From Planctomycetota bacterium (GTDB lineage Bacteria > Planctomycetota > UBA11346), in assembly GCA_038213805.1 (NCBI GenBank), contig JBBQSO010000064.1, positions 1 to 31,214 on the forward strand: a stretch of DNA of 31,214 nucleotides, written 5' to 3'. Shown in pieces: positions 4,431 through 20,056 of this stretch. The notes under the pieces are model-generated. The model searched no databases. It saw nothing but the letters and a program-made list of their open reading frames with translations, and had not been told where the DNA came from. Each line of letters starts with the position of its first letter. The first letter of the stretch is position 1. A program made the position numbers and the translations under genes.

Positions 4431-5420
4431 ATGGACCTCACCGCCATCTCTGAAGCCGATCCCGACCTGCGCGCCCTGCGTCTGGACACCGACCGCGCCG
4501 CGCCGCTGCGGCGCGTGAATTTCGCCGAGGGCATGCTGCTCGGCATCGAGGCGACCAACGCCGAGCAGGAATTCCACCGCCGCCGGCTGGTGCGCCACCA
4601 GCACTGGCTGCACGGCGCCGGCACGGTGGTCGGCCTCGCCGTGTCATTGCGCACGCGCACCCTGACCCCGCCGGACGCGCCCGTGCTGCAGCAGCAGGTC
4701 GAGATCCTGGTCGCGCCGGGCGTGGCCGTCGACGGTCTCGGTCGTGAGGTCCAGGTCGCCGAGCCCTCTTGCATCAATCTCATCGACTGGCTGGTGGCGC
4801 AGGGCAGCGATGCGGCGGCGGGGTCATTCGACGCAGGCGGGCGCTTCACCCTGGCCGGTTGGCTGGTGGCGCAGGCGCCCGCGCTCGCCGAGGCCGTCAC
4901 CGCCGGCGTGCTCAACCTGCGCGTCACGGTGCGCCAGGAGGCCGATCCGCAGGGCCTGCAGCCGGCTTTCGCCAGCGCACTGAACGATTCCACCGACGCG
5001 GTGTCCGCGAGCCGCATCGCCGATGGCCTGGCGCTGGAGCTGAGCCCCGACCTGCAGCCCGGCGAGGATCATGGCGGACGACCGGCGGCGTGGACAGGCG
5101 TGGTCGTTCCGGCAGACGCCGCGCTCGACGCGCACCTTGATGCGGCCGAAAGCGCGCGTCTCGCTGCGCTACCCGACGACGCGGCGCGCAGCGCGCTGCG
5201 CCGGCGTGCGCGTCTGCTCTTCGCCACGGGCGCCGGGCTGCCCGCGGGCGCCGGCAGCGGCGTGCAGCCGGACGCGCTCGCGGAACCGGCGCGCATCCTG
5301 CTGGCGCGCATCGCCATCGCGGTGCCCGACGTGACCAGCGTGGTGGTCGATCCCGCCACGATCCACGTCGACAACCTGGTGCGGCCGTTCGCGGTCGCCG
5401 GAGCGTTGCTGCCCATCTGA
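4431..5420 (+). CDS. eCIS-associated protein with fibre/anchor-like N-terminal module (paralogue 1)
   Basis: 329-aa ORF in the operon; RVNFAEGMLL..EQEFH..G.GTVVGLAV..VAPGVAVDGLGRE. Confidence 0.7.
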   Translation: MDLTAISEADPDLRALRLDTDRAAPLRRVNFAEGMLLGIEATNAEQEFHRRRLVRHQHWLHGAGTVVGLAVSLRTRTLTPPDAPVLQQQVEILVAPGVAVDGLGREVQVAEPSCINLIDWLVAQGSDAAAGSFDAGGRFTLAGWLVAQAPALAEAVTAGVLNLRVTVRQEADPQGLQPAFASALNDSTDAVSASRIADGLALELSPDLQPGEDHGGRPAAWTGVVVPADAALDAHLDAAESARLAALPDDAARSALRRRARLLFATGAGLPAGAGSGVQPDALAEPARILLARIAIAVPDVTSVVVDPATIHVDNLVRPFAVAGALLPI

Positions 5421-5474: not shown

Positions 5475-7619
5475 ATGACCATCGTCCCGTCCCGCTTCCT
5501 ACAGCCCTTGAGCGGTCTGCGCCCACGCCCGGTGTTTGCGCCGCTGCCCGCGGTTCCGGCGAGCCCGGTGCCGACGCCGACCACGGTCGTCGCGCAGGTC
5601 ACCGACCCGCTGCTGACGCGCACCGCCTACTTCGACGGTCGCCTGCTGACCGCTGATGACCTGATCCGCGACCAGCAGTACCTGGACGAGCGCCTGCTCG
5701 AAGCCGGCCGCGTCGGCGGCGATGGCGTGGTGCAGGGCCTCGCACTCAGCCTGGACGCAGCCACCCAGAAGCTGCACGTGCGCGCCGGCATCGCCATCAC
5801 CTCGCTCGGCCGCGCCCTGGTGCTCGACCAGGAGCTGGTCGTCGACCTCGGCGACCGCGCCACGATCAGTCGCCTCAACGATGGCGCCGCTGCGCACTTC
5901 CCGGCCGGGACCTATGCGGTGGTGCTGCAGTACGCGGAACGGCAGTCCGGGCTCGCCGAGGCCTATCCGACCGACCTGGGCAGTGCCCGCACCCTGCATG
6001 CGGACGGCATCGTGGAGGGTGTCGAGGTGGTGCTGGTGCCGCTCGGCCTGCCGGTGCCGCCCGGCGGCGAGGCGGCGGCGCGCGCCCAGCTCGCGCTGCG
6101 CGTGGTCGGGCAGGACGCATTGACCGCGCTGCTGCCCGACGACGGCGTCGCCTTGGGTGTGCTGGCGCTGCGCGACGACGCGCCGCGCTGGGTGGATCCT
6201 GATCTGCTGCGCCACCCGCGCCGCCTGCCTTTCGCTCCCAACCTCGCGGTCGCGGACCTCTCCCGTCAGTACGACACGCTGGTCGCCGAGGTGCGCTACG
6301 AGCGCAGCAGCGCCGGCCTGCCCAGCGCGTGGGCGGCGCACGACTATTTCCACCGCCTGCCGCCAAGCGGGGGTTTGGCCAAAGACGCCATCGACCCGTC
6401 TGCGGGCACGCAGAGCTTCTTCCCGGAACAGATCGCGGTGTGGGTCGCGCCGGTGCGCCGCGACGACCTCGCTGCAATCCGCCGCGCGGCCCTCGACCTC
6501 GACTGGATCGACCTCGACGCCGGCGAGCCGGCCGAGGTGCTGGTGCTGGCCGCACTCGATCCCGCCGCCTACGCCACCTTCGTCAACCGCCTGGAGTCCC
6601 CGTTCGATCCACTGCAGCGCCTGCTGCCACGTCTCGATGGCCTGCAGCTGCGCGTGGTCGGCGCGCCGGCGGTCCACCGCCTCGACACCGACGCCGGTGC
6701 CTGGCAGGAGCTGTGGAACGGCTTGGCGGAAAAGGACGTCGTCTACGTGCGCCGCCAGCCGCGCGCCAGTGAGCAGGGTGTGGCCGGGATCGTGCTCGCA
6801 CGCGGCTATGCGGCACCGGTCGCGACGCCGGTGCCGACGCCGAGCCCGATCCCGAGGCCGACTCCCATTCCTGGTCCGAGACCGATTCCGATTCCCGTTC
6901 CCGCGCCGACGCCGCAGCCCGTTCCGGTCCCGTCGCCTGTTCCGCAACCTACTCCAACACCGGTCCCTGTTCCCACTCCGACGCCCACTCCGACTCCGAC
7001 TCCTACTCCCGCACCGGCCCCAACTCCTGTGCCTGCGCCTGTGCCTGTGCCTGTGCCTGTGCCGACGCCAATCCCAATTCCGACTCCGATTCCGATTCCG
7101 ATTCCGATTCCGACTCCGACTCCGACTCCGACTCCGACTCCGACTCCAACTCCGACTCCGACTCCCAGGCCCACTCCCGTCCCGATTCCCGCGCCGACGC
7201 CCACCCCATTCCCGCGGCCGCTCCCAACGCCGATCCCGGGCCCGCTCCCGCCCGGCCCGATCCGTCCACTGCCGGGTTTGGTTGACGGCAACGATGGCGC
7301 TCTGCTGGAGCGACTGCACGGCTTGGCCGAGGTGCGCGGCCCGGTCTCCGCCCGCGTTGCGGCCCGCGTGGTCAAGGTCGCCGGCGGCGACGCCACCGCG
7401 TTGCCGGCGGTGGTGGCCATCCTCGACGCCGTCGATCCCGTCGGGGACACGGCGCTGTGGCCGACCCTGTCCGCGGTGCTCAAGGCTGGCACCATCGCCG
7501 CGCTGGCGGCGGCGGTCGCAGGTGCTCGCGCGCCGCGCAAGCCCAAGGCGATGCTCGCCATCGTCACGCGCCTTGAGTCCGGCGCTGCCGTGCTCAAGGC
7601 CTGGCAGGCCCTGGCCTGA
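5475..7619 (+). CDS. eCIS-associated protein with the same N-terminal module plus a Pro/Thr-rich stalk (paralogue 2)
   Basis: 714 aa; [39 protein letters not shown]; (P-X)n tract at about 6828-7274. Confidence 0.75.
7038..7163 (+). repeat. Coding 6-bp microsatellites
   Basis: (CCTGTG)4 at 7038-7061, (CCGATT)4 at 7086-7109, (CCGACT)6 at 7110-7145, then CCAACT and (CCGACT)2. They encode PV, PI and PT dipeptides. Confidence 0.95.
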
Positions 7620-7629
7620 GGAGTCCCCG

Positions 7630-10600
7630 ATGCCCCGCACCATCCATCTCCACGATCTGCTGCGCACCCCGGCACACGCCGGGCAGGAGCGCCTTGAGCT
7701 CTTTCCCGGCCGCCACCTCGGCGAGGTCGAGTTCGACCGCATGCAGGAATATCAGCAGGCGCGCCTCGACCGCCTGCTCGCGGGCGTTCCCCAGGGTGTG
7801 GTCTACGGTCTCGAAGTGCAGCCCACGGCGGTCGCCGGAGGAGCGTTGGCCCCGACCTTCCTGGTCAAACCGGGCTTGGCCGTCGGCGCCGATGGACAAG
7901 CGATGCTGCTGCCGTCCCCGCTGCGTCCCCGTTGGGCCGATCTGACCATTGGCATTGCCGATGGCCTCTACCTGCTGGTGCTCACCCGCCAGGAGCTGGG
8001 CGACGCGCCGATCGCCCCCGGCGATCCGCAACGCCGCACCGAGAGCGACCCGAGCGTCGACCTGCGCATCGAGGCGGTGCTCGGCACCGCCCTGCGCCGG
8101 CTGCCCGACCCGGGCCTGGCCCTCGACCAGCACGACCTCATCGCCAACCGCTTCTGTCTGGACCATGCCGAACTCGACCTGCTGCCCGCGGGCATGGCGG
8201 CGGCGTCCCTGGCGCTGGTCGCAGTGCGCGGCGGTCTCGCGCTGTGGTGCGACCGCGCCGCCGGCCGGCGCCTGACCGTGACCACGTCGGGCCACTATGC
8301 GCTGTATGACCAGAGCGTGCTCACCATCCGCAGCGTCGTGGCGGCCAACCCGCAGGCGGCAGGTGAAACCCAGGCGGCGTGGTCGGCGCGGCTGGTGACC
8401 GCGTTGCGCAGCCGACTCGCCGGCTTGCCCGCGGCCATCCAGCTGCCGCCGGCGCTGCTGACCGCGACCCTCGCCGCGGTGCTGACCGCGTACGAGGGTG
8501 ATCCCGCGCAGGTCAGGCCGACCGCGGCCTACGCGTTTCTCGGCGACCCCGGCGTGGCGGTCGAGCTGGTGCCACTGCGCGCCAGCCAGGTGCAGGCGGT
8601 GCTGCGCAGCGAACTCGGTCGCGGGCCGCTGCACTTCGGCGCGCGCGGTGAACGTGTGCGCCTGTGCCTGGCGGTGAACGATCGCGACTTCCGCGGCGAC
8701 CTGCTCGACCTGCCGCAGGCGGACGGCGAGGTGCTCGAGGCGCTCTACCGCCAATATCTGACCGCGAACCGGGCGTGGGTGGCGTGGCGCGCCGCCCAGG
8801 ACGCCCTCACCGGCGACGCCACCGTCGACCAGCACGACGATTTCGCGCTGACCATCACTGCTGACGACGGCACGCAGCCACAGATCTTCGCCGCCGCCAT
8901 CAATGTCACCGCCGTCGAGAAGGCCGGGCTGCTGGCGGCGCGCACCGACGGCGCGCCGCCGGCGCCCCCGCAGCTGTTCCTGCGCTTGATCGACGCGGCG
9001 CTCATCGCACGCGGCCTGGCCGCCGGACCCGTCATCACCGACGCGCAGCGCGCGCAGCTGCAACCGCAACTGCCCGAGCCCTACCGCGGCCCGCTGCCCG
9101 CACCGTACGTCGACCTGGGTGGCTGGCTGCAGGTGCGCGGGCTGCCCGCTCCGGCCGCGGCCGCTGCGCCGGTGGCACCCGGTACCGGCGTGCGGCGCAT
9201 CACGGTGGAGCGCCTCATCGCGGCGCTCGAGCAGGCCGTCGCCAAGGACCAGACCGACCTTGATGGCGTGCGCGACTACGTGTTATCGCAGCGTCAGCAC
9301 CTCGACGCGCACACCCTCAACCTCGCCGCCCTGGCCGGTGGCGTGGCGACCGACGGCAGCGGCCTGCGGCTGCTGCGCACCCTGCCCTTCGTGCGCCTCG
9401 ACATGCACGCGGCGATCGCGCCCAGGGTGTTCCGCCCCGATTCCGCCCCGGGTCTACGCGCGACGCGCCTGGACGTGGGCGCGCTTGGCGCGGGGACCAT
9501 CGGCCGCCCGCTGCCCGCGCAGATCAACGTGGAGGCGCGCGCCGACCAGATCGTGCTGCAGCCGCGCGAGTTGGCGGACGGTTCGCTGAGCAACGTGCTC
9601 GGACAGAAAGTGGTCGATGGGAATCTTAACATCCCGGTGGTGGCGCAAGCCGTAACCGAAAGCCAGTTTCAGGCCAAGGCCGGCGATTTCGGCGTCATCT
9701 CGCACGTTGAGCCGGGCATCTACGCGGTCGGCGAAGCGCTCGGCAGCCTGGGCACCCTGCGCGACGCGGCGCAAAAGGTGGACGGGCTCAAGGGCCTCGC
9801 CTTCCCCGCCTTCAAGGACCCGGCCGGCGACGTGCCCAATCCCACCCCGGACCAGGTCCAGCCGCTGCGCTATCAGCAGCTGGTCGAGGCGGGCAAGTAC
9901 CTGATCGGGATCATCACCCAGACCGAGGCGCGACGCCTGTTCCTGGAGCGCTGCCTGCGTGCCAAGGCCGACGAGCTGGCCGCGCGGCGCAGCGAGCTCG
10001 CCCGGCTGCAAGCGGACGAGGCGCAGCTGGTCGCAGCGCGCAAGCGCGCGGACGACGACCTCAGCGAGGCCCTCGACGACTACGCCATGGCGCAGCGCAT
10101 GGCAGACGAGGATTGGACCACGGTCGCATCCAGCGACGACCGGCGGCGCGCGCTGATCCTGAACCCGGTGGCGCTGCTCATGGTGCGCGCACGCCAGGAG
10201 CCAATCGCCAGCGACCTCGCCGACCCGCTGCCGCTGCGCCTGGCGGTACGCGGCGATGCCGCGCCCGGCTGCGGCATCGTCGACGGGCCGATCGCGCAGC
10301 GCTTCGATCTCGAGCGCGTGATGCGTGCGCTGCCGGCCACCGGCAGCTTCGATGCGGCCACCGCGCGGCGCCTGCTTGGGCGCGAGCTGGTCGCGGTGCG
10401 CGGACTGGCCGGTGCGGCCGCGGCGCGTGCCAGCGCGCCGGTCGACGGTCACGCGGCCCCGGCCGAACTCGCGCCGTTCCTCGACGCGCTCTTCGAGCTG
10501 CCAGCCACCGACTTGGTCGCGCTGCGCCCGCTGCTGCCGCAGCTGCCCGAACGCAGCAGCCTGGCGGTGCTGATCGCGGCGCGCACCCCGCGCCTGCAGG

Positions 10601-11358
10601 CGCGCCTGGCCGCCACCGCGTCGCCACCGCCATACCTCGCGGCGGTGGGCGCGCTCAGCATGGGCACGCTGCGCGGCCTGCTCGCCACGGCGCCTGCGCT
10701 CGCGCTCGGTAGTGAGCGCCTCGCCCGTCAATCCGCGGGCGCGGTGCTGGGCGTCGCCGACCTGCTCGCCGGGCCGGCCGGTCCGCTGCGCAGTGCGGCC
10801 GAACGCCTGCGCGGCAATCTCGAACGCGCGGCGGGCTGTCTGGTCGCGCAACTGGACGGCGTCAGCGCCGGCGTGCGTCTGGCGTGGGGTGAGCGGGCCG
10901 ATGACGATCAGCTCGCTTGCGACCGGCCAGAGAGCTGGCCGCTGCTCGCCACGCTTGAGGCCAAGGCCTTCAATACTGCGCGCACCCTGGTTGAGATCGT
11001 GCAATGGTGGTTCCGCCAGGTCGACGGCGCCAGCAGCGATGCGACGCGCACCGCCTTCCGCACCGTGGTGCGCGCGGCGGTGCTGCAGGCGGCGCACGGC
11101 GACAGCGCCCAGCTGCTGCAGGGACCGGTGCAGCAGCCGGCGACGCTGCGGCCGGGCGCGATCCTGCGCCTGGACCTCAACCGCACCGCCACGCTCGGCA
11201 CGCAGCTGCAGCTCTTCGATCCGGCCAACCGCCTGGTCGGACTGCTGCGCGTCGACGATCACGACGACCGCGGCGCGGTCGCCAGCGTGGTCGCCAGCTA
11301 CCTGCCGGCGATGAACGTCACCACCGCATTCCGCGTCAGTGGCCGGAACGGAGGCTGA
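7630..11358 (+). CDS. Large eCIS-associated coiled-coil protein with the same N-terminal module (paralogue 3), 1242 aa
   Basis: ATG at 7630 follows GAGGAG at 7618-7623, just after the previous stop. [32 protein letters not shown]; heptad-like helical stretches at about 9205-9340 and 9919-10117. Confidence 0.75.
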
Positions 11359-12825
11359 GTGCACGACCGCATCACCATCGGCACGGTGCGTCTGCGCGGC
11401 CCCGGTGCGCGCGCCGCGGCACTGCCCGCGCAGGCACGCCGCGAGCTGGTCGCCGCGCCGTGGCCGCTCGCGCCGCGCGCCCAGGTCTTTGTCCGCCGCC
11501 TGCGCGTGCGCGGTCGGCCCGGCCAGCTCGGTCGCCTCGCGGCCGCGCGCCTGGCTCTGACCCTGGCCGGTGCCGACGGGCCCGAGGTGGTGCGCTTCGC
11601 CGACGACGCGGCGTTGGTCGCGGCGCTCAGCCTCGACCTGCTCGCGGGCAGCGCGGCGCGGCGCTGGTGGTGGTGGTCGCACCAGGATCTGGTCGCCCTG
11701 CCGCTGGGCGCCGCACTCGCGGCGTTGTGGAGCCGCCACGCACCGGACCTGGTCGCAGTGTGCGTCGCGCTCGCCCGCCAGGGGCGCCTGGAGGCGGTTT
11801 TCGCCGCGCTCGGCGCGTCCGGCTGCTGCACGGTGGCCGCCGCGCTCGCGCAGCGCCTGGCCACGCCCATGCCGCAGTCCGCGACCAGTCTGCACGCGAC
11901 AGTCGTAGCGCCCGAGCGCCTGCCGGCGGCCATCGATCGGCGCTGGCGGCCGCTGCTCGGCGCAACTGGGGCTCCGGTCCACGCCACCTGGCTGGCTGGC
12001 GTGCTCGCCCTGCTCGAGGCGCGGCCACTGCGCCTGGTCGGGATTGATGGGGCTGCCGCGGTCGCGGCGCTGGTCGCCGATGCCGCGCCGTCGGTCAGGG
12101 TATCGCGCGCCTGGGTGCCTGCGGCGGCACCGGCTGGCGGTGGCGCCGAGGTGGTGCTTCCAGGTGTCGCCGCACCGGCCGCGCTCGTACCGGGTCGTGG
12201 CGTCGCCGCACCCGCGGAGAGCGCGCTGCCATCTGAATCTGCCGGGTCTGTTCAGGTCATTCCGACTGCGGCGCATCCTGGCGAGGAATTGGGCGCGTCC
12301 GTGCCCGAGGTTCTCGCGACCAACGAGGCCGCCGCCGTCTGCGATGCAGAGGTCATCATCAGCGGCTACGCGGGCGCGGTGGTGCTGATCAACCTGCTGC
12401 GCGTGCCCGCCCTCGCGCAGGTGGCTGAAGATCACGGCCTGCTCGCGCGCCGCGGCAGCGCCTGGCGTCTGCTCGCCGCGCTCGCCGCGGCGCTCGGACT
12501 GCCCGCGGACGACGGACTCGCACTATGGCTGGAGCGCACCTCCGCGGCGCTCGAAGAGCCACCGCTGGTGGACGACGCCGCGCGCGCCTTCATCGCCGCG
12601 ACGGCGGCGCTGCTCGGCCCCGCGCTGTGGGACCCGGCGCTGATCGCGGTCGCCGGCACCCTGGTAGCCACACCGACGCACCTCGATGCGCACCTGCCGC
12701 TCGCCGCGGTGCGCGTGGCGCTGCGCCTCGCCGGGCTCGATGTCGATCCCGGCTGGGTGCCGTGGCTCGGCCGGGTGGTGGCGATCCACTACCACGCCGC
12801 CGCCGCCGACCAGGGCACGCCATGA
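11359..12825 (+). CDS. Putative contractile injection system tape-measure-like (Afp14-like) protein
   Basis: GTG abuts the previous TGA, with GGAGG at 11350-11354. C-terminal YAGAVVLINLL and AGLDVDPGWVPWLGRVVAIHY. Lies directly before the ATPase, as afp14 does before afp15. Confidence 0.55.
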   Translation: MHDRITIGTVRLRGPGARAAALPAQARRELVAAPWPLAPRAQVFVRRLRVRGRPGQLGRLAAARLALTLAGADGPEVVRFADDAALVAALSLDLLAGSAARRWWWWSHQDLVALPLGAALAALWSRHAPDLVAVCVALARQGRLEAVFAALGASGCCTVAAALAQRLATPMPQSATSLHATVVAPERLPAAIDRRWRPLLGATGAPVHATWLAGVLALLEARPLRLVGIDGAAAVAALVADAAPSVRVSRAWVPAAAPAGGGAEVVLPGVAAPAALVPGRGVAAPAESALPSESAGSVQVIPTAAHPGEELGASVPEVLATNEAAAVCDAEVIISGYAGAVVLINLLRVPALAQVAEDHGLLARRGSAWRLLAALAAALGLPADDGLALWLERTSAALEEPPLVDDAARAFIAATAALLGPALWDPALIAVAGTLVATPTHLDAHLPLAAVRVALRLAGLDVDPGWVPWLGRVVAIHYHAAAADQGTP

Positions 12826-14780
12826 CCGCCAGCGCCACACCTTCCGCCCCCATCCATGCCGCGCTCGGCGCCTGGGTGCGCGCCGGCCTGGCGCACTTCG
12901 CCGCCACCCACGTCACCGAGCCGGGCCCGGCCTGCCAGCAGCTCAGCCCGGCGACGGTCGCCGGCGACGCCAACGCTTGGCAGGCGCACGGCGAGGCCAT
13001 CGCCGCGTTGCTCCTCGACGCCCCCGGGCCGCTCGCGGCCGCGACACGCACCCTGCATCTGGATGCGGCGGAGCTGTTCCTGCTCGCGCTCGCCGGCGCG
13101 GTCGAGGACCACCACCTCGTCGGCCTCGCCCTGGGCGAGCTCCAGGCAGGTGGCGGCGGCACGCGGCCGCAGGTGCATACCGCGCTCGCCCTGGTCGGCA
13201 CGCTGTTCGCCGCCGACCTCGACGCCACCGCGCTGCTCGGATGCGCGCCGGTCGCGAACCACCTGCTTGAGCTGCGCGGTGACGGTCCGCTGCCGCTGCG
13301 CGAACTGGCGGTCGACCCGCGCCTGTGGCTGGCGCTGCGCGGTGGGGCGGCGGGCTGGCCCGACTGCACGGTGATCGCTGCAGCCGACGCTGAGCTGGTC
13401 GATGCCGCCACGCTCAAGGCACTGCCGCATCTGGCCGGACTGCTGCGCGGCGGCGGCGCCGGTTGCGCGGTGCTGCGCGGCACCCCGCGCAGCGGCCGCG
13501 GCGGCGCGGCGGCGCGGCTCGCCGGCCTTCTCGACCGCAGCGCGCTGCGCATCCCGCCTGAGCGTTGGCGCGGCGCGCCGGCGCTGGGCGCGGCCTGCCG
13601 CTGGTGCGGCTGGCTGCCGGTGCTCGAACTCAGCCTGAGCGCGGGCGAGAGCGCCGGGGCCGTCGACAATCCCGGCTACCGCGGGCCGCTGGCGCTGCTC
13701 GTCGGCCGCGATGGCCAGGTCGACCGCCGCGACGCCGTCGAGCTGAGTGTCGGCATGCCCGCGCCCGCCGAGCGCGCGCGCTGGTGGCGGCAGCACCTTG
13801 GCGACGCGGTGCTCGCCGATGAAGCGGCGCTCGCGGGCCTCGCCGGCCCGGCCATCGCCGCGGTCGCCGGCCAGGCGCAGGTGCTGGCGGCGCGCGCCGG
13901 CGAGCCGCTCGGCCGCGACCACCTGCGCAGCGCGCGCCGCCTGGTCGGTGCCGACGCGCTGCGCCTGCTCGCCCAGCCGGTCGATCGCCGCGTCGGCCCC
14001 GACGCGCTGGTGTGCACGCCGGCCGTACGCGGCGAGCTCGAACGCTTCGTGCTTCGCTGCCGCGCGCGCGAAACGTTGTGGGACGGCCTCGGTGCCTCGG
14101 CGGCCTGCACCGCGACGCGCGGCCTGCGCGCGCTGTTCGTCGGCGACAGCGGCACCGGCAAGACCCTGGCGGCGTCGTGGCTGGCCACCGAACTCGGCGC
14201 GCCGCTCTACCGCGTCGACCTCTCGGCGGTGATGAACAAGTATGTGGGCGAGTCCGAGAAGAACCTGGCGCGCCTGCTCGATCACGCCGCCGCCCACGAC
14301 GTGGTGATCCTGTTCGACGAGGCCGACGCGCTGTTCGGCGCGCGTGGCGATGGCGGCGAGGCCGGCGAGCGCTACGCGAACATGCTCACCAACTTCCTGC
14401 TCCAGCGCATCGAGGAGCACCCCGGCATCGCCATCCTCACCAGCAACAGCCGGCTGCGCATCGACAAGGCCTTCACCCGCCGCCTCGACGCGGTCATCGA
14501 ATTCCCGCTCCCCGGACCGGGCGAACGCCTGGAACTGTGGCGCAGCCACCTCGGCGGCCGCGCCGGCGACGACGGCATGTGCATGTTCCTGGCCAGCTGG
14601 TGCGACCTGCCCGGCGGTGTCATCCGCAACGTGGTGGTCGCCGCCGCCGCGCTCAGCGACGGGCCGATCGGCCTGCTGCCGTTGCTCGAGGCGCTCGCAC
14701 GCGAGTACCGCAAGCTCGGCCGCACCATGCCCACCGGCCTGGCGCACACCCTGACCAACGCGCCCGCGGCGGCGTCGTGA
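12822..14780 (+). CDS. AAA+ ATPase, Afp15/Pvc15-like
   Basis: ATGA overlap with the previous gene. Walker A GDSGTGKT (14142-14165), VDLSAVMNKYVGESEKNL, Walker B ILFDEADALFG, SRH TSN..IDKAFTRRLD. Confidence 0.92.
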   Translation: MTASATPSAPIHAALGAWVRAGLAHFAATHVTEPGPACQQLSPATVAGDANAWQAHGEAIAALLLDAPGPLAAATRTLHLDAAELFLLALAGAVEDHHLVGLALGELQAGGGGTRPQVHTALALVGTLFAADLDATALLGCAPVANHLLELRGDGPLPLRELAVDPRLWLALRGGAAGWPDCTVIAAADAELVDAATLKALPHLAGLLRGGGAGCAVLRGTPRSGRGGAAARLAGLLDRSALRIPPERWRGAPALGAACRWCGWLPVLELSLSAGESAGAVDNPGYRGPLALLVGRDGQVDRRDAVELSVGMPAPAERARWWRQHLGDAVLADEAALAGLAGPAIAAVAGQAQVLAARAGEPLGRDHLRSARRLVGADALRLLAQPVDRRVGPDALVCTPAVRGELERFVLRCRARETLWDGLGASAACTATRGLRALFVGDSGTGKTLAASWLATELGAPLYRVDLSAVMNKYVGESEKNLARLLDHAAAHDVVILFDEADALFGARGDGGEAGERYANMLTNFLLQRIEEHPGIAILTSNSRLRIDKAFTRRLDAVIEFPLPGPGERLELWRSHLGGRAGDDGMCMFLASWCDLPGGVIRNVVVAAAALSDGPIGLLPLLEALAREYRKLGRTMPTGLAHTLTNAPAAAS

Positions 14781-14797
14781 GATGAGAGGAGCCTGAC

Positions 14798-17700
14798 ATG
14801 CCCACTCCTGCCACCGCCCGCCGTCGTGCCCCGGCGCAGACCCCGGCCGCCTCCGCGCCGGCCAGCGCCCAGCAGCAGCCCGCGGCTGCCGGCGGCACGC
14901 CCGCCTACCTGCAGCGCAAGCTGCGCATGGGTCAGGCCGGCGACGCCTACGAAATGGAGGCCGACCGCGTCGCCGACCAAGTCGTGTGTGGCCAGCGCGG
15001 TGCGGCCAACGGCCAGGCGGCGCCGGGCGTGCAGCGCGCGGGCGACGAGAAGAAGCAGGACGCGGGCGCCGCCAAGCCGGGTCAGAAGGGCGACGGCAAG
15101 GCGGCTCCAGGCAAGGAGCAGGCCAAGGACCAGAAGGGCCAGACCGACACGAAGACCGCTGCGCCGGGCGCCGCCGGCAAGGATCAGAAATCTGCCGCGC
15201 CCGCACCCAAGCCGGCGCAGCCCGGCGAGAAGAAGGACCAGGTGGCGCGCAAGGAGGTCAGCGCCGAGGACAAGGTCGACAAGGCCAAGGAACAGCACGT
15301 CAAGAAGCAGGAAGCCCAGCAGCAGCACGAGGCGAAGGAGAAGGGGGCCCACGCGGAAACCACCGACAAGGACGTCGGCGCCCATGCCGCCAAGCCCGAG
15401 GAGAAGCCCGCCGCCGGCCCCGAGCAGGTGCAGAAGAAGTCCGCGCAACCGCAGATCTCGCGCATGCCTGATGCTACGCTGCAGCGCGAAGCCAGCGGCG
15501 CGGGTGGCGGGGTCGGCGCCGACACCGAACAGCGCATCGCCGCCAGCCGCGGCGGCGGCCAGCCCCTGCCCGAGCAAGCCCGTACCGGCATGGAGTCCGG
15601 CTTCGGCGAGGACTTCTCCGGCGTGCGCGTGCACCACGATGCCGAGGCAGACGCTCTCGCCCGCGACCTCGATGCGCGCGCCTTCACCGTCGGCAACGAC
15701 GTCTACTTCGCGCAGGGCGCCTACGATCCCGACAGCTCCAGCGGCCAGCACCTGCTCGCGCACGAGCTGACCCACGTGGTGCAGCAGGGCGGTACCGGCG
15801 GCGGCGTGCAGCGCCTGGCCGTGCAGGCGGCGAAACCCAAGAGCGGGGGGGGCGGCGGGAAGAATGCCGACGCCAAGGACGCCAAGGACGCCGAGGACGG
15901 CCCCAAGCTCGACGGGGACACCTATATCGGTCCCGAAGGCACCATCGACAAGGACCTGAAGGAGGTCCACATCAAAAGCGTGAACCTGGCCGCGGTCAAG
16001 GCGCCCCCGCTGACCCCCGGCGACACCGACCTCAAGCTGTCGGAGGACAAGCGCGGGCAGACCACACAACTCAGCACATGGGAGAGCGCGGTCGCGGCCT
16101 CCAAACTCGGCGACAAGCTTCAAAGCAAACTCGCAGAGCGGCCGGGCAGAAAGGGCACCAAGAAGGATGGCGCCGGGGACCCCGCCCAGGTGCACTACCT
16201 CAAGATCGGCAGCTCGGCCCAGCACCTGATCGGCACCAGGGACAGCCTGCTCAAGCAGCTGGCGCGGCCGTTCTGGTCGCGCAGCGGCGCAGCGGCGTTC
16301 TACCAAGTCGACCACCGCCACGAGCTGCAGCTCGGCGGACAGGACGAGCTTGCGAACCTTTGGCTCCTCCAGAACTGGGTCAACGGCCAGTCCGGGGTGC
16401 AAATCAACGGCGCTGTCCAGGCGGCCCTCATCACCCTGCGCGACGCGGCGAAGAATCTCAATTTGTGGAAGAAGGCGCCCACCTATGACGCGGTGCGCTA
16501 CGGCGCGAACCGCGTCATCGACAAGGCGGTCTTCACCGCGAAACCTGGCAAGGCCACCGCCGAGCAGTCTTACACCCTCGAGGACATCACCGGCGGCGCG
16601 CAGCTGGCGCCGCTCGTCCCCGTGACCGCGAAAGATGCCGGCATCACCGGCAAAGCGGACCAGCTCGAGCTGTTCAGTGGTCCGACCGGCGGACGCAGCG
16701 TGTCCGTCACGCTCAAGGATGGCAAAGGGACGGTTCCGGATGGCCTGCCCTGGCTGCGCGGGCTGCAGCCGCAGGGCCTGACCTGGGACGGCACGGCCGG
16801 CACCATGGGCGTCACGCTGTTCGCCAGCAAGAACCCCAAGAACAACCGCATCCTCAAGCCGATCACCGGGGTCTCGCTGACGCTGCAGTCGCTGGCGGGG
16901 GTCCCGGGTGCCGCCTATCTCGACGTCAGCGGTGTGCGCGGCCAGCTCAAGGGCCTCTCGATCAAGGGCTGGAGCCCGGTCGAATTCGGCGAGGTCGAAA
17001 TGGGCGACAACGGGCTGACCTGCCGCGGTACCATCACGGTCAGCGTGCCTCTGCTGAAAGGCGCGCCCATCGACATCATCATCAGCGGCGACGAGGTCGC
17101 GGTCGAGAAGACCTTCAGCGCTGAGGAGTTCCAGATCCCGGGCCCGGTCAAGGTCGATGGCGCCAGCCTGACCGTCAAGGTCGGCACCCATGGCCTGGCC
17201 GCGACCGGCCTGGTGAAATTCTCAATCGAGCGCGTGGGCACCGGCCACATCAAGGCCACCGGTTCGACTGAAGCCGGCGGCACCTGCGAGCTCGAAGGTA
17301 AATTCACCGTCGACCCGAAGATCGTCGACGAGGGCGAACTGACCGCGCGCTACAAGGACGGCAAATTCAGTGGCGAAGGCAAACTCGGCATCAAGGCCGG
17401 GCGCATCAAGGGCATCAAGGAGGCGCACGCCAAGGTCGCCATCGATGGCGACAAGTGGGACGCCAAGGGCGAGATCACGCCCGACGTGCCGGGCATCGAA
17501 CGTGGCGACCTGCACATCGCCTTCGATCCCGAGCAGGGCATGACCATCGGCGGCGACCTCTTCCTCAAGAAGCTGCCCGGCGTCAGCGAGGGCAAGCTTT
17601 CGGCCGAACTGCGCGACGCCGGTGACCGGCGCGTGTTGAAGGCGAGCGGCGACATCGTGCTCGCCATCCCCGGCCTGCCCGCGACGGTGCACGCCACCTA

Positions 17701-18679
17701 CGATGACGGCATCTTCACCGCCGAGCTCGCAGTCAGCTACAAGAAGGGCATGCTCGACGGCCAGGTCACCGTCGGCATCACCAATCAACCGCCCTCCGAT
17801 GACGGCGCGGCCGCGTCCACAGCGCCCGCCGCACCCGCGGCCAGTGCGGGTGGCGGCGGTGGCGAGCTCACCGTCTATGGCCGCGGCACCGTCACGATCC
17901 AGATCTGCCCTTGGCTCAAGGGCACGGTCGGCATCACCGTCACGCCCGACGGCCACGTCAAGGTCAGGGGCGAGGTCGCCCTGCCCTCCGACATCGACCT
18001 CCTCCCCGAAAAGAAGTACGAGAAGACCCTGCTCTCGATCGGCATCGACATCCCGATCGTCGGCGTGTCCTTCGCCGGCCAGCGCATCGGCATCTTCGCC
18101 ACCATCGGCGGCAGCTTGAAGTTCGACGCCGGCATCGGCCCGCTCAAATTGCGCGGCCTGCGCCTGGGCATCGAGTACGACCCCCAGAACGAGGACGCCA
18201 CCCACGTCACCGGCGGCGGCGAGATCGTGTGCCCGGCGCACGCCGGCCTGCGCATGGAGGTGCACGGCGGCCTCGGCGTCGGCATCCCCATCGTCAGCGC
18301 CACCGCCGGCGTCGAGATCGGCGGCGAGCTTGGCCTCAAGGGCGAGGCCAAGGCCGGGGTCGACGTCGACTGGACCCGGCAGAAGGGTCTCGACCTGACC
18401 GCGCACGGCGACATCACCGTCCAGCCGACCTTCAAATTCGATGTCAGCGCCTACGTCAAGGTCGAGGCCGACCTGTGGGTCACCACCGTCAACCTCTACG
18501 AGAACCACTGGAACCTGGCCTCGTTCGAATACGGCTCAGGCATGGAGTTCGGCGTCTCGTTCCCGGTCCACTACACCGAAGCCGAGGGCATGAACCTGGC
18601 CCTCGAGCAGATCGAGGTGAAGAAGCCGGACATCGACCCGATGTCGATGCTGAGCGGGCTGATGGACAAGATCACCTGA
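14798..18679 (+). CDS. DUF4157 (eCIS core domain) protein with internal HNH-like motif and Gly-rich beta-strand C-terminal region
   Basis: RBS GAGGAG. LQRKL.MG..GDAYEMEADRVADQV; DUF4157 at 15551-15787 (GQPLP..FG.DFSGVRVH..ARAFTVGNDVYF..LLAHELTHVVQQ); YQVDHRHELQLGG..NLWLL..N at 16301-16384. Confidence 0.9.
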   Translation: MPTPATARRRAPAQTPAASAPASAQQQPAAAGGTPAYLQRKLRMGQAGDAYEMEADRVADQVVCGQRGAANGQAAPGVQRAGDEKKQDAGAAKPGQKGDGKAAPGKEQAKDQKGQTDTKTAAPGAAGKDQKSAAPAPKPAQPGEKKDQVARKEVSAEDKVDKAKEQHVKKQEAQQQHEAKEKGAHAETTDKDVGAHAAKPEEKPAAGPEQVQKKSAQPQISRMPDATLQREASGAGGGVGADTEQRIAASRGGGQPLPEQARTGMESGFGEDFSGVRVHHDAEADALARDLDARAFTVGNDVYFAQGAYDPDSSSGQHLLAHELTHVVQQGGTGGGVQRLAVQAAKPKSGGGGGKNADAKDAKDAEDGPKLDGDTYIGPEGTIDKDLKEVHIKSVNLAAVKAPPLTPGDTDLKLSEDKRGQTTQLSTWESAVAASKLGDKLQSKLAERPGRKGTKKDGAGDPAQVHYLKIGSSAQHLIGTRDSLLKQLARPFWSRSGAAAFYQVDHRHELQLGGQDELANLWLLQNWVNGQSGVQINGAVQAALITLRDAAKNLNLWKKAPTYDAVRYGANRVIDKAVFTAKPGKATAEQSYTLEDITGGAQLAPLVPVTAKDAGITGKADQLELFSGPTGGRSVSVTLKDGKGTVPDGLPWLRGLQPQGLTWDGTAGTMGVTLFASKNPKNNRILKPITGVSLTLQSLAGVPGAAYLDVSGVRGQLKGLSIKGWSPVEFGEVEMGDNGLTCRGTITVSVPLLKGAPIDIIISGDEVAVEKTFSAEEFQIPGPVKVDGASLTVKVGTHGLAATGLVKFSIERVGTGHIKATGSTEAGGTCELEGKFTVDPKIVDEGELTARYKDGKFSGEGKLGIKAGRIKGIKEAHAKVAIDGDKWDAKGEITPDVPGIERGDLHIAFDPEQGMTIGGDLFLKKLPGVSEGKLSAELRDAGDRRVLKASGDIVLAIPGLPATVHATYDDGIFTAELAVSYKKGMLDGQVTVGITNQPPSDDGAAASTAPAAPAASAGGGGGELTVYGRGTVTIQICPWLKGTVGITVTPDGHVKVRGEVALPSDIDLLPEKKYEKTLLSIGIDIPIVGVSFAGQRIGIFATIGGSLKFDAGIGPLKLRGLRLGIEYDPQNEDATHVTGGGEIVCPAHAGLRMEVHGGLGVGIPIVSATAGVEIGGELGLKGEAKAGVDVDWTRQKGLDLTAHGDITVQPTFKFDVSAYVKVEADLWVTTVNLYENHWNLASFEYGSGMEFGVSFPVHYTEAEGMNLALEQIEVKKPDIDPMSMLSGLMDKIT

Positions 18680-18816
18680 CGGTGCGGGGCCGCATGATCG
18701 CACGCCGCCCCCGCAACGCCGTGGCGCATGCGGCGTAAACCCTGGGGATACGCGCCTTGCGGGGCGTAGCAGCGCGACCAAACTCGCCACCAGCACCCGT
18801 TGACGGAAGGCCGACC

Positions 18817-19053
18817 ATGGATCTGCAAGTCACCTCGCACGTGGTCGCCGCCGGCTTCGGCATGTTCAGCGGCATGCACTGGATCATCATCCTGGTCGTC
18901 GCCCTGTTGATCTTTGGGCGCCGCCTGCCGGACATCATGCGCGGCATCGGCAGCAGCGTGCGCGAGTTCCGTAAAGGTCAGGAGGACGGCGTCGCCACAG
19001 ACAAGGCGGCTGCCATCAGTCCGCCGGCGACTCCCGACGCGCTGAAGAAGTGA
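18817..19053 (+). CDS. tatA: Twin-arginine translocase TatA/TatE subunit
   Basis: GGAAGG RBS. TM helix WIIILVVALLIFG, then amphipathic RLPDIMRGIGSSVREFRKG. Confidence 0.9.
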   Translation: MDLQVTSHVVAAGFGMFSGMHWIIILVVALLIFGRRLPDIMRGIGSSVREFRKGQEDGVATDKAAAISPPATPDALKK

Positions 19054-19081
19054 GCGCACCCGCTCCGGCGATGCTCCGCCT

Positions 19082-20056
19082 CTAACCGTCCGTGCGCCGC
19101 GCCTCGCCCACCGCCGGCTCGGCCGCGCGCGGTGCGGGATTCTGCAACCAGCTCTGACCCCGTCCCGGCCGCCACGCGTCGTGGAAGGCCACCCACTGCG
19201 CCGGTGCTGCGGCGATGAAACGCAGCATGGTGCGCGCCAGGCGGCGGGTCAGCAGCTCTGCCTGCTGGTTCTTGGGCAGATCCGGGTCGGCATGGATCGG
19301 CTGACCGACGATCAGGGTGAAGCGCGTCGGGCCGCTGCGCGCCAGAAACAGCGGGATGATCGGCGAGTGCGTCTGGATGGCGAGGGCAGCAGGCCCGAGC
19401 GGCAACGCCATCGGCTCGCCGGCAAACGGCACCGCCAGGCCGTTCCCGGTATAGTCGCGGTCGCCGAGCAGGCCCAGGATCTTGCCTTCCTTGAGGGCGC
19501 GCAGCGAGCCGAGCGGGGCGCGGTCCAAGAGCAGGCTGCGCGTGCCGACCGCGTTGCGCTGGCGTTCAAAGAGCGCGTCGATGCGCGGATCGCCGCTGCC
19601 CAGCGCGACGACCTCGGCGCCGGTGATCAGCCCCAGGCGGTGGGTGACCGCGGCGAGCACCTCCCAGTGGCAATGCACCGTGACCAGGATCGCCGGGCCG
19701 TGCAGTGGGCGGTTTGCGAACACGCCCCACGGATCGACCACGGTCAGGCGCGGCGCGCGGAAGAAGTTCGCCGGCAGACTGCTGAGGCGGAACGACTCCG
19801 CGAGGTACCAGCCGAAATTGATGTAGCTGCGCCGCACCGCGCGGGCCAGGGCCTCGGGACAGCGCGCGGGCAGGAAGTGCGCGAGGTTGCGCCGCACCGT
19901 CACCCGCCCGCGCGCGTCGCAGGCCCACAGCAACGTGCCGACCGCGTAGGCTATGGTCCGCCCCAACCACAGCGGGCAGACGTGGGCGAGCCGCACCTTG
20001 GCCTGGTACAGCAGCAGGCGCAGGCGCGGGCGGTCGGCGAAGAGGTCGCGGCTCAT
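19082..20056 (-). CDS. Lysophospholipid / lipid A lauroyl-type acyltransferase (LpxL/PatA family)
   Basis: LVTVHCHWE, GLLGDRD, VPFAG...LPLGPAALA, I..APAQW. ATG at 20056 with upstream GGAG, downstream of recJ on the same strand. Confidence 0.8.
   Translation of the reverse strand: MSRDLFADRPRLRLLLYQAKVRLAHVCPLWLGRTIAYAVGTLLWACDARGRVTVRRNLAHFLPARCPEALARAVRRSYINFGWYLAESFRLSSLPANFFRAPRLTVVDPWGVFANRPLHGPAILVTVHCHWEVLAAVTHRLGLITGAEVVALGSGDPRIDALFERQRNAVGTRSLLLDRAPLGSLRALKEGKILGLLGDRDYTGNGLAVPFAGEPMALPLGPAALAIQTHSPIIPLFLARSGPTRFTLIVGQPIHADPDLPKNQQAELLTRRLARTMLRFIAAAPAQWVAFHDAWRPGRGQSWLQNPAPRAAEPAVGEARRTDG

Follow-up and report, generated by a model that had tools for sequence, protein, structure and literature searches.

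A Cgo2-family eCIS cargo protein with a predicted internal HNH-like module

The window, by which we mean the whole 31,214-nucleotide stretch of DNA that was analysed, contains an eCIS operon encoding Baseplate_J, Tail_P2_I and CIS13-like proteins and an AAA ATPase, with a long cargo gene at its end. The genome that hosts the cargo gene is Planctomycetota-like. The features of this part of the window, all on the + strand, are as follows.

11359..12825, +, conserved eCIS protein of 488 aa, occupying the tape-measure position (BLASTP to an ORF of Cellvibrio locus L005)
12822..14780, +, eCIS AAA+ ATPase of Cis15/Alg15 type (PF00004, E 5e-25; PHROG ATPase, E 3e-47; frame from GC3)
14798..18679, +, complete cargo gene closing the eCIS operon, 1293 aa (ORF list and translation)
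14798..15562, +, Ala/Gln/Gly/Lys-rich disordered leader, aa 1-255, a candidate loading sequence (composition and repeated phi-Q-[RK] motifs)
14912..14965, +, conserved N-terminal box QRKLRMGQAGDAYEMEAD, aa 39-56 (107 of 221 family members have it; alignable with the N-terminus of Cgo2)
15563..15796, +, DUF4157 / eCIS_core / PVC-metallopeptidase domain, aa 256-333 (PF13699, E 5.5e-33)
15797..15949, +, low-complexity Gly/Lys/Ala/Asp linker, aa 334-384, starting with VQRL
15950..16645, +, central domain, aa 385-616, housing the HNH-like module (HMMER; AlphaFold2 model)
16301..16456, +, predicted beta-beta-alpha core, aa 502-553 (model secondary structure, conservation, hhalign)
16646..16957, +, putative small domain of all-beta type, aa 617-720
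16958..17989, +, tandem repeats, putatively beta-rich, of about 70-75 aa each (self profile comparison; repeat signal at about aa 653-1064)
17990..18676, +, C-terminal domain free of repeats, aa 1065-1293 (28 of 229 columns conserved at 80% or more; median identity 43%)
18862..19053, +, tatA, likely starting at an inner ATG, the boundary of the eCIS operon (98-aa ORF, with PF02416 at its aa 38-78, E 2e-11)

The ATPase stop lies 18 nt 5' of the cargo start, an SD-like AGGAG box stands 6 nt 5' of the cargo ATG, and the in-frame GC3 of the cargo gene is 0.84-0.98 across 15001-18600. An earlier sequence-only reading had confined the protein to 14798..16500; the start held, whereas the ORF continues for 725 aa past 16500 and is more than twice as long as that range allows. 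Apart from this end and one written spacing, the features it described were found where it had placed them; its observation is confirmed, and its interpretation, a nuclease injected as eCIS cargo and perhaps freed through HExxH-dependent cleavage or held inactive in cis, is partly supported. A scan of 14500-19200 for promoters and terminators found no promoter-like sites, and terminator-like sites were rarer than in shuffled sequence, with none on the + strand. The 488-aa protein, which matched nothing in Pfam or PHROG, aligned end to end by BLASTP (26% identity, E 6e-14) with the ORF preceding the ATPase in the Cellvibrio locus.

The protein runs from the disordered leader through DUF4157, with its HELTH motif, to a central domain of about 235 aa, beta repeats of about 70 aa and an end domain of about 230 aa. 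The leader is dominated by Ala (55), Gln (30), Gly (29), Lys (28) and Pro (20) and is punctuated by short motifs; within aa 1-345, the pattern [LIVMF]Q[RK]x occurs five times against 0.57 expected (LQRK38, VQRA78, VQKK211, LQRE228 and VQRL337), a count reached in 0 of 2000 shuffles. Four of the five motifs picked out in the sequence-only reading (LQRK, VQRA, VQKK and LQRE) fit this pattern, while VARK does not, and the phi-Q-[RK] enrichment extends across the cargo family (1365 occurrences against 188 expected). The genome-wide search for DUF4157 matched 15563-15796, with HELTH at aa 322-326 (nt 15761-15775), as had been noted; the H, E and H of HExxH are each at least 90% conserved in the family. 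The linker that follows has no conserved column in its 51 positions and a median identity of 16%. Beyond the central domain, self-comparison of the repeats gave off-diagonal probabilities of 96.5-98.7% at shifts of 72-81 and 117-147 residues, and the C-terminal domain showed the highest median identity to relatives of any part save DUF4157.

The central domain contains YQVDHRHELQLGGQDELANLWLLQNWVN (aa 502-529, nt 16301-16384), in which the sequence-only reading had recognised an HNH-type pattern written as DH-x6-GG-x5-NL-x6-N. The motif is present at these positions, although its spacing had been miscounted and its true end is NL-x7-N. In this corrected form, 6e-7 occurrences would be expected in 1293 aa from the composition of the protein, and the pattern occurs a single time in the six-frame translation of the window. 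An AlphaFold2 model of the central domain (pLDDT 91.7, pTM 0.86; motif block pLDDT 94-98) placed a strand at 502-506, carrying D505 and H506, a second strand at 521-525, directly after N520, and a helix at 526-553, carrying N529. As the HNH assignment had anticipated, the motif residues proved near-invariant in homologues: D505 in 153, H506 in 154, N520 in 154 and N529 in 152 of 154, and all four in 107 of 107 near-full-length family members. E509 (151/154) and Q511 (153/154) were likewise kept, and 150 of 154 proteins carried the full motif signature, as did 117 of 117. Outside the motif, identity across the central domain falls to 22-24%, with 0-2 conserved columns per roughly 100.

Profile-profile comparison by hhalign against 20 PF01844-verified domains yielded 93.7% probability (E 2e-07, 37 columns) with DH, GG, N and N aligned; flanking regions (0.1-0.3%), a reversed profile (0.3%) and 60 column-shuffled profiles (at most 5.4%) served as controls. 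Sub-threshold matches to PF01844 or PF14279 fell exactly on the motif in 8 of 40 members, the best at 18.6 bits against a cut-off of 21.4, and weak VIA matches of the central domain were to NucB and the Cas8 HNH domain. No curated HNH model in Pfam or NCBIfam matched the central piece of this protein, even at E<=10, and a PDB sequence search gave no match with the single protein and two chance-level rows with the family profile. Foldseek of the central-domain model against PDB and BFVD returned nothing at E<=1e-3. PHROGs yielded a single weak match (E 0.007, aa 504-525), to a family without assigned function. Atlas feature searches scored below 0.9 throughout and serve as leads only; among their matches were an 'HNH endonuclease signature' cluster (0.78), Ntox15 (0.77) and DUF6603 (0.82), and Atlas feature scores of the central part were below 0.8. 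We regard an HNH-type fold as very likely, given the near-invariant catalytic-type residues, the AlphaFold2 model and the profile-profile match.

The module shares its modelled beta-beta-alpha topology with canonical HNH domains (PF01844) and with the His-Me finger nucleases, among them NucB (6ejs), Cas8 HNH (8w1p) and Gme HNH (4h9d), and the DH, GG, N and N/H positions of canonical HNH domains align with it. Unlike those domains, it has no CxxC zinc knuckles, and E509 and Q511 are family-specific invariants where canonical HNH has Pro or Ser. The spacing from H to N (14) and from N to N (9) is, we presume, that of H840, N854 and N863 in the HNH domain of SpCas9. An acidic residue before the His together with a helix Asn characterises an Mg-type site (PMC5758888), and the cargo module shows the same arrangement.

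HMMER searches with the central domain recovered 200 representatives at E<=1e-3, and about 200 representative relatives share one fixed layout; a leader and DUF4157, the module and a body of at least 740 aa were present together in 110 of 154 proteins. The internal position of the putative nuclease, which had been remarked on as unusual, is the fixed architecture of a large family and not a peculiarity of this gene. None of the 154 proteins examined had the module fused to another delivery domain, which sets it apart from typical shuffled toxin cassettes. A separate search for related loci, with two patterns of which one was the N-terminal box, confirmed 636 relatives.

Among the proteins found by the profile search was A3HTA9 of Algoriphagus machipongonensis (1228 aa, 1647 bits), which is Cgo2 (ALPR1_12690; Supplementary Table 1, PMC8894135). 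BLASTP aligned aa 684-1288 with Cgo2 at 36% identity (E 2e-115) and matched the N-terminal box as well; Cgo2 shares the leader with this box, DUF4157, the D-H...N...N motif and the C-terminal body. The counterparts of D505 and H506 in Cgo2 are D394 and H395. Its central domain is too diverged for BLASTP alignment, and its motif loop is 7 residues longer; the impression from BLASTP that Cgo2 has a different central region was rejected when direct inspection showed the motif there. A second 1228-aa entry, P0068, had been considered as Cgo2 and was rejected, its cluster carrying no names; Cgo2 is P0182. Within the text of PMC8894135 available to us, Cgo2 was located in the AlgoCIS tube lumen by cryoET and MS, and killing of E. 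coli was reported for Cgo1 only, though Cgo2 was also expressed, which argues against a toxin that is simply active at all times. The proposal that the protein is an eCIS cargo is well supported by this kinship with a demonstrated tube-lumen cargo, and we hold with high confidence that it belongs to the Cgo2 family.

Like the cargo gene, Cgo2 sits in an eCIS cluster beside an AAA ATPase, yet the order of genes differs: tape measure, Cgo1, Cgo2, TPR and ATPase in AlgoCIS, and ATPase, cargo and tatA here. Unlike AlgoCIS, this locus has no TPR gene, and the genome has no second DUF4157 protein. The next gene is indeed tatA (PF02416), which also adjoins the cargo in a genome of the same genus (G214). 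An immunity-like gene had been reported missing, and the gap between cargo and tatA (18680-18861) contains no free-standing ORF of at least 20 aa; every ORF in it shares sequence with tatA or with the cargo gene's 3' end. All 8 relative loci place the cargo in the same eCIS neighbourhoods, and in 7 of them a TPR gene lies directly 3' of it, the place taken by tatA here. In AlgoCIS the corresponding gene, ALPR1_12685, is directly 3' of Cgo2 (PMC8894135), and its TPR protein is not packaged. A search for a TPR partner elsewhere in the genome gave generic TPR matches only (best E 8e-9, partial coverage). Since most relatives have a TPR gene beside the cargo, the absence of a partner holds for this lineage only, and the TPR protein is a candidate chaperone or inhibitor.

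As an explanation of the whole, we lean towards a leader-loaded Cgo2-family cargo with a divergent HNH-like, predicted nuclease module. The disordered leader would act as a loading signal through which the upstream AAA+ ATPase may feed the cargo into the tube lumen, and contraction would expel the cargo into the target, as experiments on AlgoCIS suggest. The accessible part of a preprint (10.64898/2026.05.27.728243) describes the NTD of Cgo1 and Cgo2 as needed for loading. Behind DUF4157, in silico analysis places a predicted divergent HNH / His-Me-finger module, in which D505 could be the acid before the base, H506 the general base, N520 the structural Asn and N529 a metal ligand at the helix start. 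Such a module might act on nucleic acid in the target as an Mg/Mn-dependent endonuclease; whether an active nuclease is the activity delivered we judge evenly balanced. A literature search found no description of the strictly conserved nuclease-like centre of this family and no nuclease assay for any member. The conserved beta-repeat body and C-terminal domain may have a second role, in delivery or folding.

It is possible, though doubtful, that the protein instead behaves like a polymorphic toxin, its DUF4157 HExxH peptidase freeing the nuclease after injection or holding it inactive in cis until then. Zhang et al. (2012; PMC3482391, consulted in part) predict that PVC-metallopeptidase acts as a releasing peptidase and name HNH-fold toxins among its fusion partners. 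In the cargo family, HExxH is conserved as given above, and a phi-Q-[RK] motif followed by the unconserved linker comes right after DUF4157, within 35 aa of HExxH, in 180 of 221 members. Set against this, our literature search found no cleavage shown for any DUF4157 protein, the toxicity of Cgo1 is independent of its HExxH motifs, the accessible part of the same preprint reports DUF4157 as dispensable for loading, and the module, internal and fixed in position, differs from a variable C-terminal cassette.

Rather unlikely, in our judgement, is that the module is a structural or binding element devoid of nuclease activity, the work of the family being mechanical, for instance to fill or block the tube or to assist other cargo across membranes. 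The fixed, non-modular architecture would fit such a role, as would a C-terminal body at least as well conserved as the motif region; against it, D, H, N and N are kept in 152-154 of 154 proteins whereas elsewhere in the central domain identity declines to 22-24%, and inactive HNH relics usually lose residues of this catalytic type. In the parts of PMC8894135 at hand, loss of Cgo2 cuts tube filling from about 96% to about 37% and no toxicity of Cgo2 in E. coli is reported, and a preprint, in its accessible part, describes no significant toxicity of retargeted AlgoCIS particles, all of which favours the mechanical role, whereas AlgoCIS particles still assemble without Cgo2 (PMC8894135). It is very improbable that the protein, rather than being cargo, belongs to the eCIS structure as a baseplate, fibre or cap component: Pfam names PF13699 the 'eCIS core domain' and Geller et al. 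call DUF4157, found in 13 phyla, a core domain, but Cgo2, as far as the available text of PMC8894135 goes, is absent from the AlgoCIS cryoEM map yet detected by MS, occupies the lumen and mostly disappears when the particle contracts (28 versus 4 peptides).

The preferred reading, that of a leader-loaded cargo with a predicted nuclease module, has a close parallel in the PVC-metallopeptidase toxins (Tox-HHH, Tox-LHH, Tox-WHH and NGO1392-like, of HNH/EndoVII fold), which likewise carry DUF4157 N-terminal to an HNH-fold nuclease-type domain, are also PVC/eCIS-associated and often lack an adjacent immunity gene, according to the portion of Zhang et al. seen (PMC3482391). Their toxin domains, however, are C-terminal cassettes that vary and also occur in other secretion systems, whereas the cargo module is internal, invariant in position and followed by about 790 aa, was found in no other context among the 154 proteins and reaches no curated HNH model. 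Since fusions of DUF4157 to HNH-fold toxins are already known, the cargo represents a divergent form of these, with the module internal and the architecture fixed. A precedent for an eCIS that injects a nuclease is the MAC effector Pne1 (Rocchi et al. 2019, by its title as given in PMC8894135), which has a disordered NTD and lacks DUF4157 (accessible part of preprint 10.64898/2026.05.27.728243).

An improbable but more far-reaching conjecture is that Cgo2-type proteins are self-contained effectors, putatively nuclease plus translocator, that are conserved in different phyla. Their beta-repeat body and C-terminal domain would then act as a device that takes the HNH-like domain across a membrane, from where it was injected into the target cytoplasm, with DUF4157 and the unpackaged TPR protein keeping the nuclease silent in the producer; if true, this would explain the fixed architecture, the conserved C-terminal part and the absence of reported toxicity of cytoplasmic Cgo2.

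For the window itself the result is modest, one more family member, from a Planctomycetota-like lineage and without the TPR partner, which most relatives encode beside the cargo and which may serve as chaperone or inhibitor. Long DUF4157 proteins account for much of the predicted eCIS effector set; most of them, 983 of 1130, lack an annotated second domain (PMC11297309), and their middle has been termed a 'very long linker' (PMC8213781). One such family includes Cgo2, the native cargo of AlgoCIS, a system under development as a vehicle for proteins. Sequence conservation and the structural model indicate that the interior of this family is ordered and conserved and contains the full set of HNH-type site residues, and this site gives long DUF4157 proteins a concrete enzymatic hypothesis.

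The cargo protein (1293 aa) is encoded by a single ORF, as seen in the ORF list and its translation; the sequence-only reading had placed its start correctly, but the range that it gave stopped at 16500 and took in no more than the first 568 aa. An AGGAG box 6 nt ahead supports this start, which lies 18 nt past the stop codon of the preceding AAA ATPase gene, while an in-frame GC3 of 0.84-0.98 along the entire ORF indicates that one frame is coding throughout. The metalloprotease-type and nuclease-like motifs that had been read from the sequence were both found in place:

14798..18679, + strand: cargo gene
15761-15775, + strand: HELTH, inside the PF13699 (DUF4157) match at aa 256-333 (E 5.5e-33)
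16301-16384, + strand: 28-residue HNH-like motif

The 5' side of the cargo gene encodes Baseplate_J, Tail_P2_I, two CIS13-like proteins, a 488-aa protein that is an end-to-end homologue of the ORF preceding the ATPase in a Cellvibrio eCIS locus, and a Cis15-type AAA ATPase. The 3' side carries housekeeping genes (tatA, which had been named as the next gene, lipid A acyltransferase, recJ, alaS and others), and the cargo gene is therefore the last gene of the eCIS operon. The window makes up an entire 31-kb contig of a 5.5-Mb, 90%-complete genome, in which the eCIS sheath gene is located on a different contig and the cargo protein is the only PF13699 protein; the nearest relatives of its AlaRS are from uncultured Planctomycetota (74-77% identity).

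Sequence comparison assigns the cargo gene to the family of Cgo2, a cargo of the AlgoCIS particle. A profile of Cyclobacteriaceae members retrieved, at 1647 bits, a 1228-aa Algoriphagus machipongonensis protein whose accessions include UniRef100_A3HTA9, and A3HTA9 is listed as ALPR1_12690, Cgo2, in Supplementary Table 1 of Xu et al. 2022 (PMC8894135). BLASTP aligned Cgo2 with the window protein over ~610 C-terminal residues (36% identity, E 2e-115), and the conserved N-terminal box common to both (aa 39-56) also aligned; the central part of Cgo2 was left unaligned, and direct inspection revealed the same motif there, with a loop 7 residues longer. As reported for AlgoCIS, Cgo2 fills the tube lumen, occupancy falling from ~96% to ~37% without it, and most of it is lost upon contraction (28 vs 4 peptides; PMC8894135); a preprint (10.64898/2026.05.27.728243) describes its loading as requiring the NTD, with DUF4157 and the CTD dispensable.

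The central motif had been written as DH-x6-GG-x5-NL-x6-N; the motif itself stands, but the spacing to the conserved Asn is NL-x7-N, and the corrected pattern has 6e-7 occurrences expected from the composition of the cargo protein. Among 154 proteins, conservation was near complete at D505 (153), H506 (154), E509 (151), Q511 (153), G514 (153), N520 (154) and N529 (152), and D505, H506, N520 and N529 were invariant in 107 near-full-length proteins; a flexible-loop signature matched 150/154, and each of the 117 Bacteroidota-type relatives listed. An AlphaFold2 model of aa 380-720, built from 59 sequences (pLDDT 91.7, pTM 0.86), placed the motif on two strands (502-506 and 521-525) followed by a helix (526-553). 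When the core (aa 485-560) was compared, profile to profile, with an alignment of 20 domains passing the PF01844 cut-off in related genomes, it matched with 93.7% probability (E 2e-07), with DH and GG aligned to their counterparts, N520 to the N position and N529 to the N/H position; among the controls, the flanking regions gave 0.1% and 0.3%, the profile in reverse 0.3%, and none of 60 column-shuffled profiles exceeded 5.4%. The spacings of the module (H-to-N 14, N-to-N 9) are the same as those of H840, N854 and N863 in SpCas9. NucB (PMC5758888) and Cas8-HNH (PMC11459484) are described as beta-beta-alpha-metal nucleases, and D505-H506...N529 match the general site as set out in the NucB paper, in which His is the base and the acid just before it and a helix Asn are Mg ligands.

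The module failed the curated-threshold test for HNH models: PF01844 or PF14279 matches were sub-threshold, in 8/40 relatives and always at the motif, the best reaching 18.6 bits where the cut-off is 21.4. It is thus a divergent branch. In silico, there is good support for an HNH-type fold whose site is complete. Lunatimonas-type members (loci L092 and L093) carry a variant (…VEHIVDWQV…), E-H for D-H and D for E509, in which residues are swapped and charge is kept.

With aa 385-651 as query, exhaustive searching by HMMER returned 200 family representatives at E<=1e-3, 61 of them at E<=1e-10, and most were 1150-1350 aa long. Of 154 proteins examined, 110 had an HExxH upstream of the motif and 740-1050 aa behind it, six had the same body without the upstream HExxH, 35 were C-terminally short (<740 aa past the motif, many <300 aa in total), two were longer and one had no motif; none joined the HNH-like module to another delivery domain. 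Behind the central domain, units of ~70-75 aa recur in tandem between about aa 653 and 1064 (self profile comparison, probabilities 96.5-98.7%), and a ~230-aa non-repetitive domain comes after them.

Regions whose median identity to the window protein exceeds 35%: that identity, and columns with at least 80% one residue
DUF4157: 53%; 21/78
beta-beta-alpha core: 37%; 17/76
beta repeats: 36%; 45/344
C-terminal domain: 43%; 28/229

Outside the core, the central domain is drifting (22-24% identity, 0-2 conserved columns). Four representatives of 2380-2639 aa (P0016, P0035, P0037 and P0106) have two or three HExxH together with the HNH-like motif in one or two copies, which looks like two cargo genes fused or annotated as a single one. 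Some loci hold two or three consecutive DUF4157 genes (L006 7322-17599; L094 6343-7440), where the window's genome has one; in an Aquimarina example one of these has an OmpA domain, and in an Echinicola example one encodes a 365-aa Cgo1-like protein.

The cargo gene was present in 3/10 same-genus genomes (best identity 53%), in 0/30 more distant relatives searched, and in 10/201 sampled genomes from the family of the Cyclobacteriaceae MAG locus L001; this distribution is that of a gene on a patchy accessory island. In the DUF4157/eCIS, DUF4157/HNH, PVC-metallopeptidase and Cgo2 literature searched, an HNH-like centre in Cgo2-type proteins is undescribed, a claim on which any domain drawings among the supplementary figures of the preprint and of Geller et al. 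may bear; the wording in Geller et al. (PMC8213781) is 'very long linker'. 'HNH' is absent from both AlgoCIS papers (PMC8894135 and the preprint), and 'nuclease' does not occur in the preprint and stands in PMC8894135 only in a reference title. The new element is a divergent, internal and apparently complete HNH-type module, common to the Cgo2 cargo family, with predicted nuclease activity.

As an active toxin the module is putative. Its catalytic-type residues are strictly constrained inside a drifting scaffold, and DUF4157 (PVC-metallopeptidase) has been associated with HNH-fold toxins (Zhang et al. 2012, PMC3482391), both of which favor activity. Against a simple toxin, the architecture of the 154 proteins is fixed and not cassette-like, E. 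coli killing is reported for the AlgoCIS protein Cgo1 only, with Cgo2 expressed likewise (PMC8894135), and the preprint describes no significant toxicity from retargeted AlgoCIS. The observation on the cargo gene was confirmed; its interpretation as an injected nuclease is partly supported.

The reported lack of an adjacent immunity gene was borne out, there being no free-standing ORF of at least 20 aa between the cargo stop codon and tatA, an order kept in a same-genus genome (G214); many PVC-type toxins are described as having no adjacent immunity genes (Zhang et al., PMC3482391). In 7/8 relative loci, L006 being the exception, a 288-322-aa TPR-repeat gene lies directly 3' of the Cgo2-type cargo gene, its start codon often overlapping the cargo stop codon:

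L001 13435-14301: TPR-repeat gene directly after cargo gene
L003 13759-14727: the same
L005 13257-14168: the same
L002 3158-4126: the same
L092 1805-2674: the same
L093 4907-5776: the same
L094 1898-2773: the same

In AlgoCIS the same gene is ALPR1_12685, whose 289-aa product carries a tetratricopeptide repeat annotation; the particle preparations tabulated in PMC8894135 list zero peptides for it. The TPR protein may act on the cargo as a chaperone or an inhibitor; searches of the window's genome gave only generic TPR matches, and the partner is absent from its lineage.

The leader, described as Lys/Gln/Ala-rich with repeated LQRK/VQRA-type motifs, is by composition Ala/Gln/Gly/Lys-rich, and phi-Q-[RK] ([LIVMF]Q[RK]) is indeed enriched over aa 1-345 of the window protein (5 sites vs 0.57 expected). 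Across 221 members, 1365 sites were observed vs 188 expected, with individual enrichment in 185 and a site within 35 aa past HExxH in 180. In the window these repeats occupy the leader and the stretch just past HExxH (14798-15830); they may serve for docking or for processing.

Between the CIS13-like genes and the gene at the tape-measure position, a coding frame identified from GC3 (7621-11358) encodes a 1245-aa protein with no Pfam or PHROG match, whose position would suit a tail fibre or a receptor-binding protein. Two consecutive proteins (4431-5420 and 5475-7619) match the CIS13 family model over their N-terminal ~80 residues only (E ~1e-10, far under the full-length cut-off), which points to a pair of fibre-like proteins that share an anchor and differ in their distal parts.
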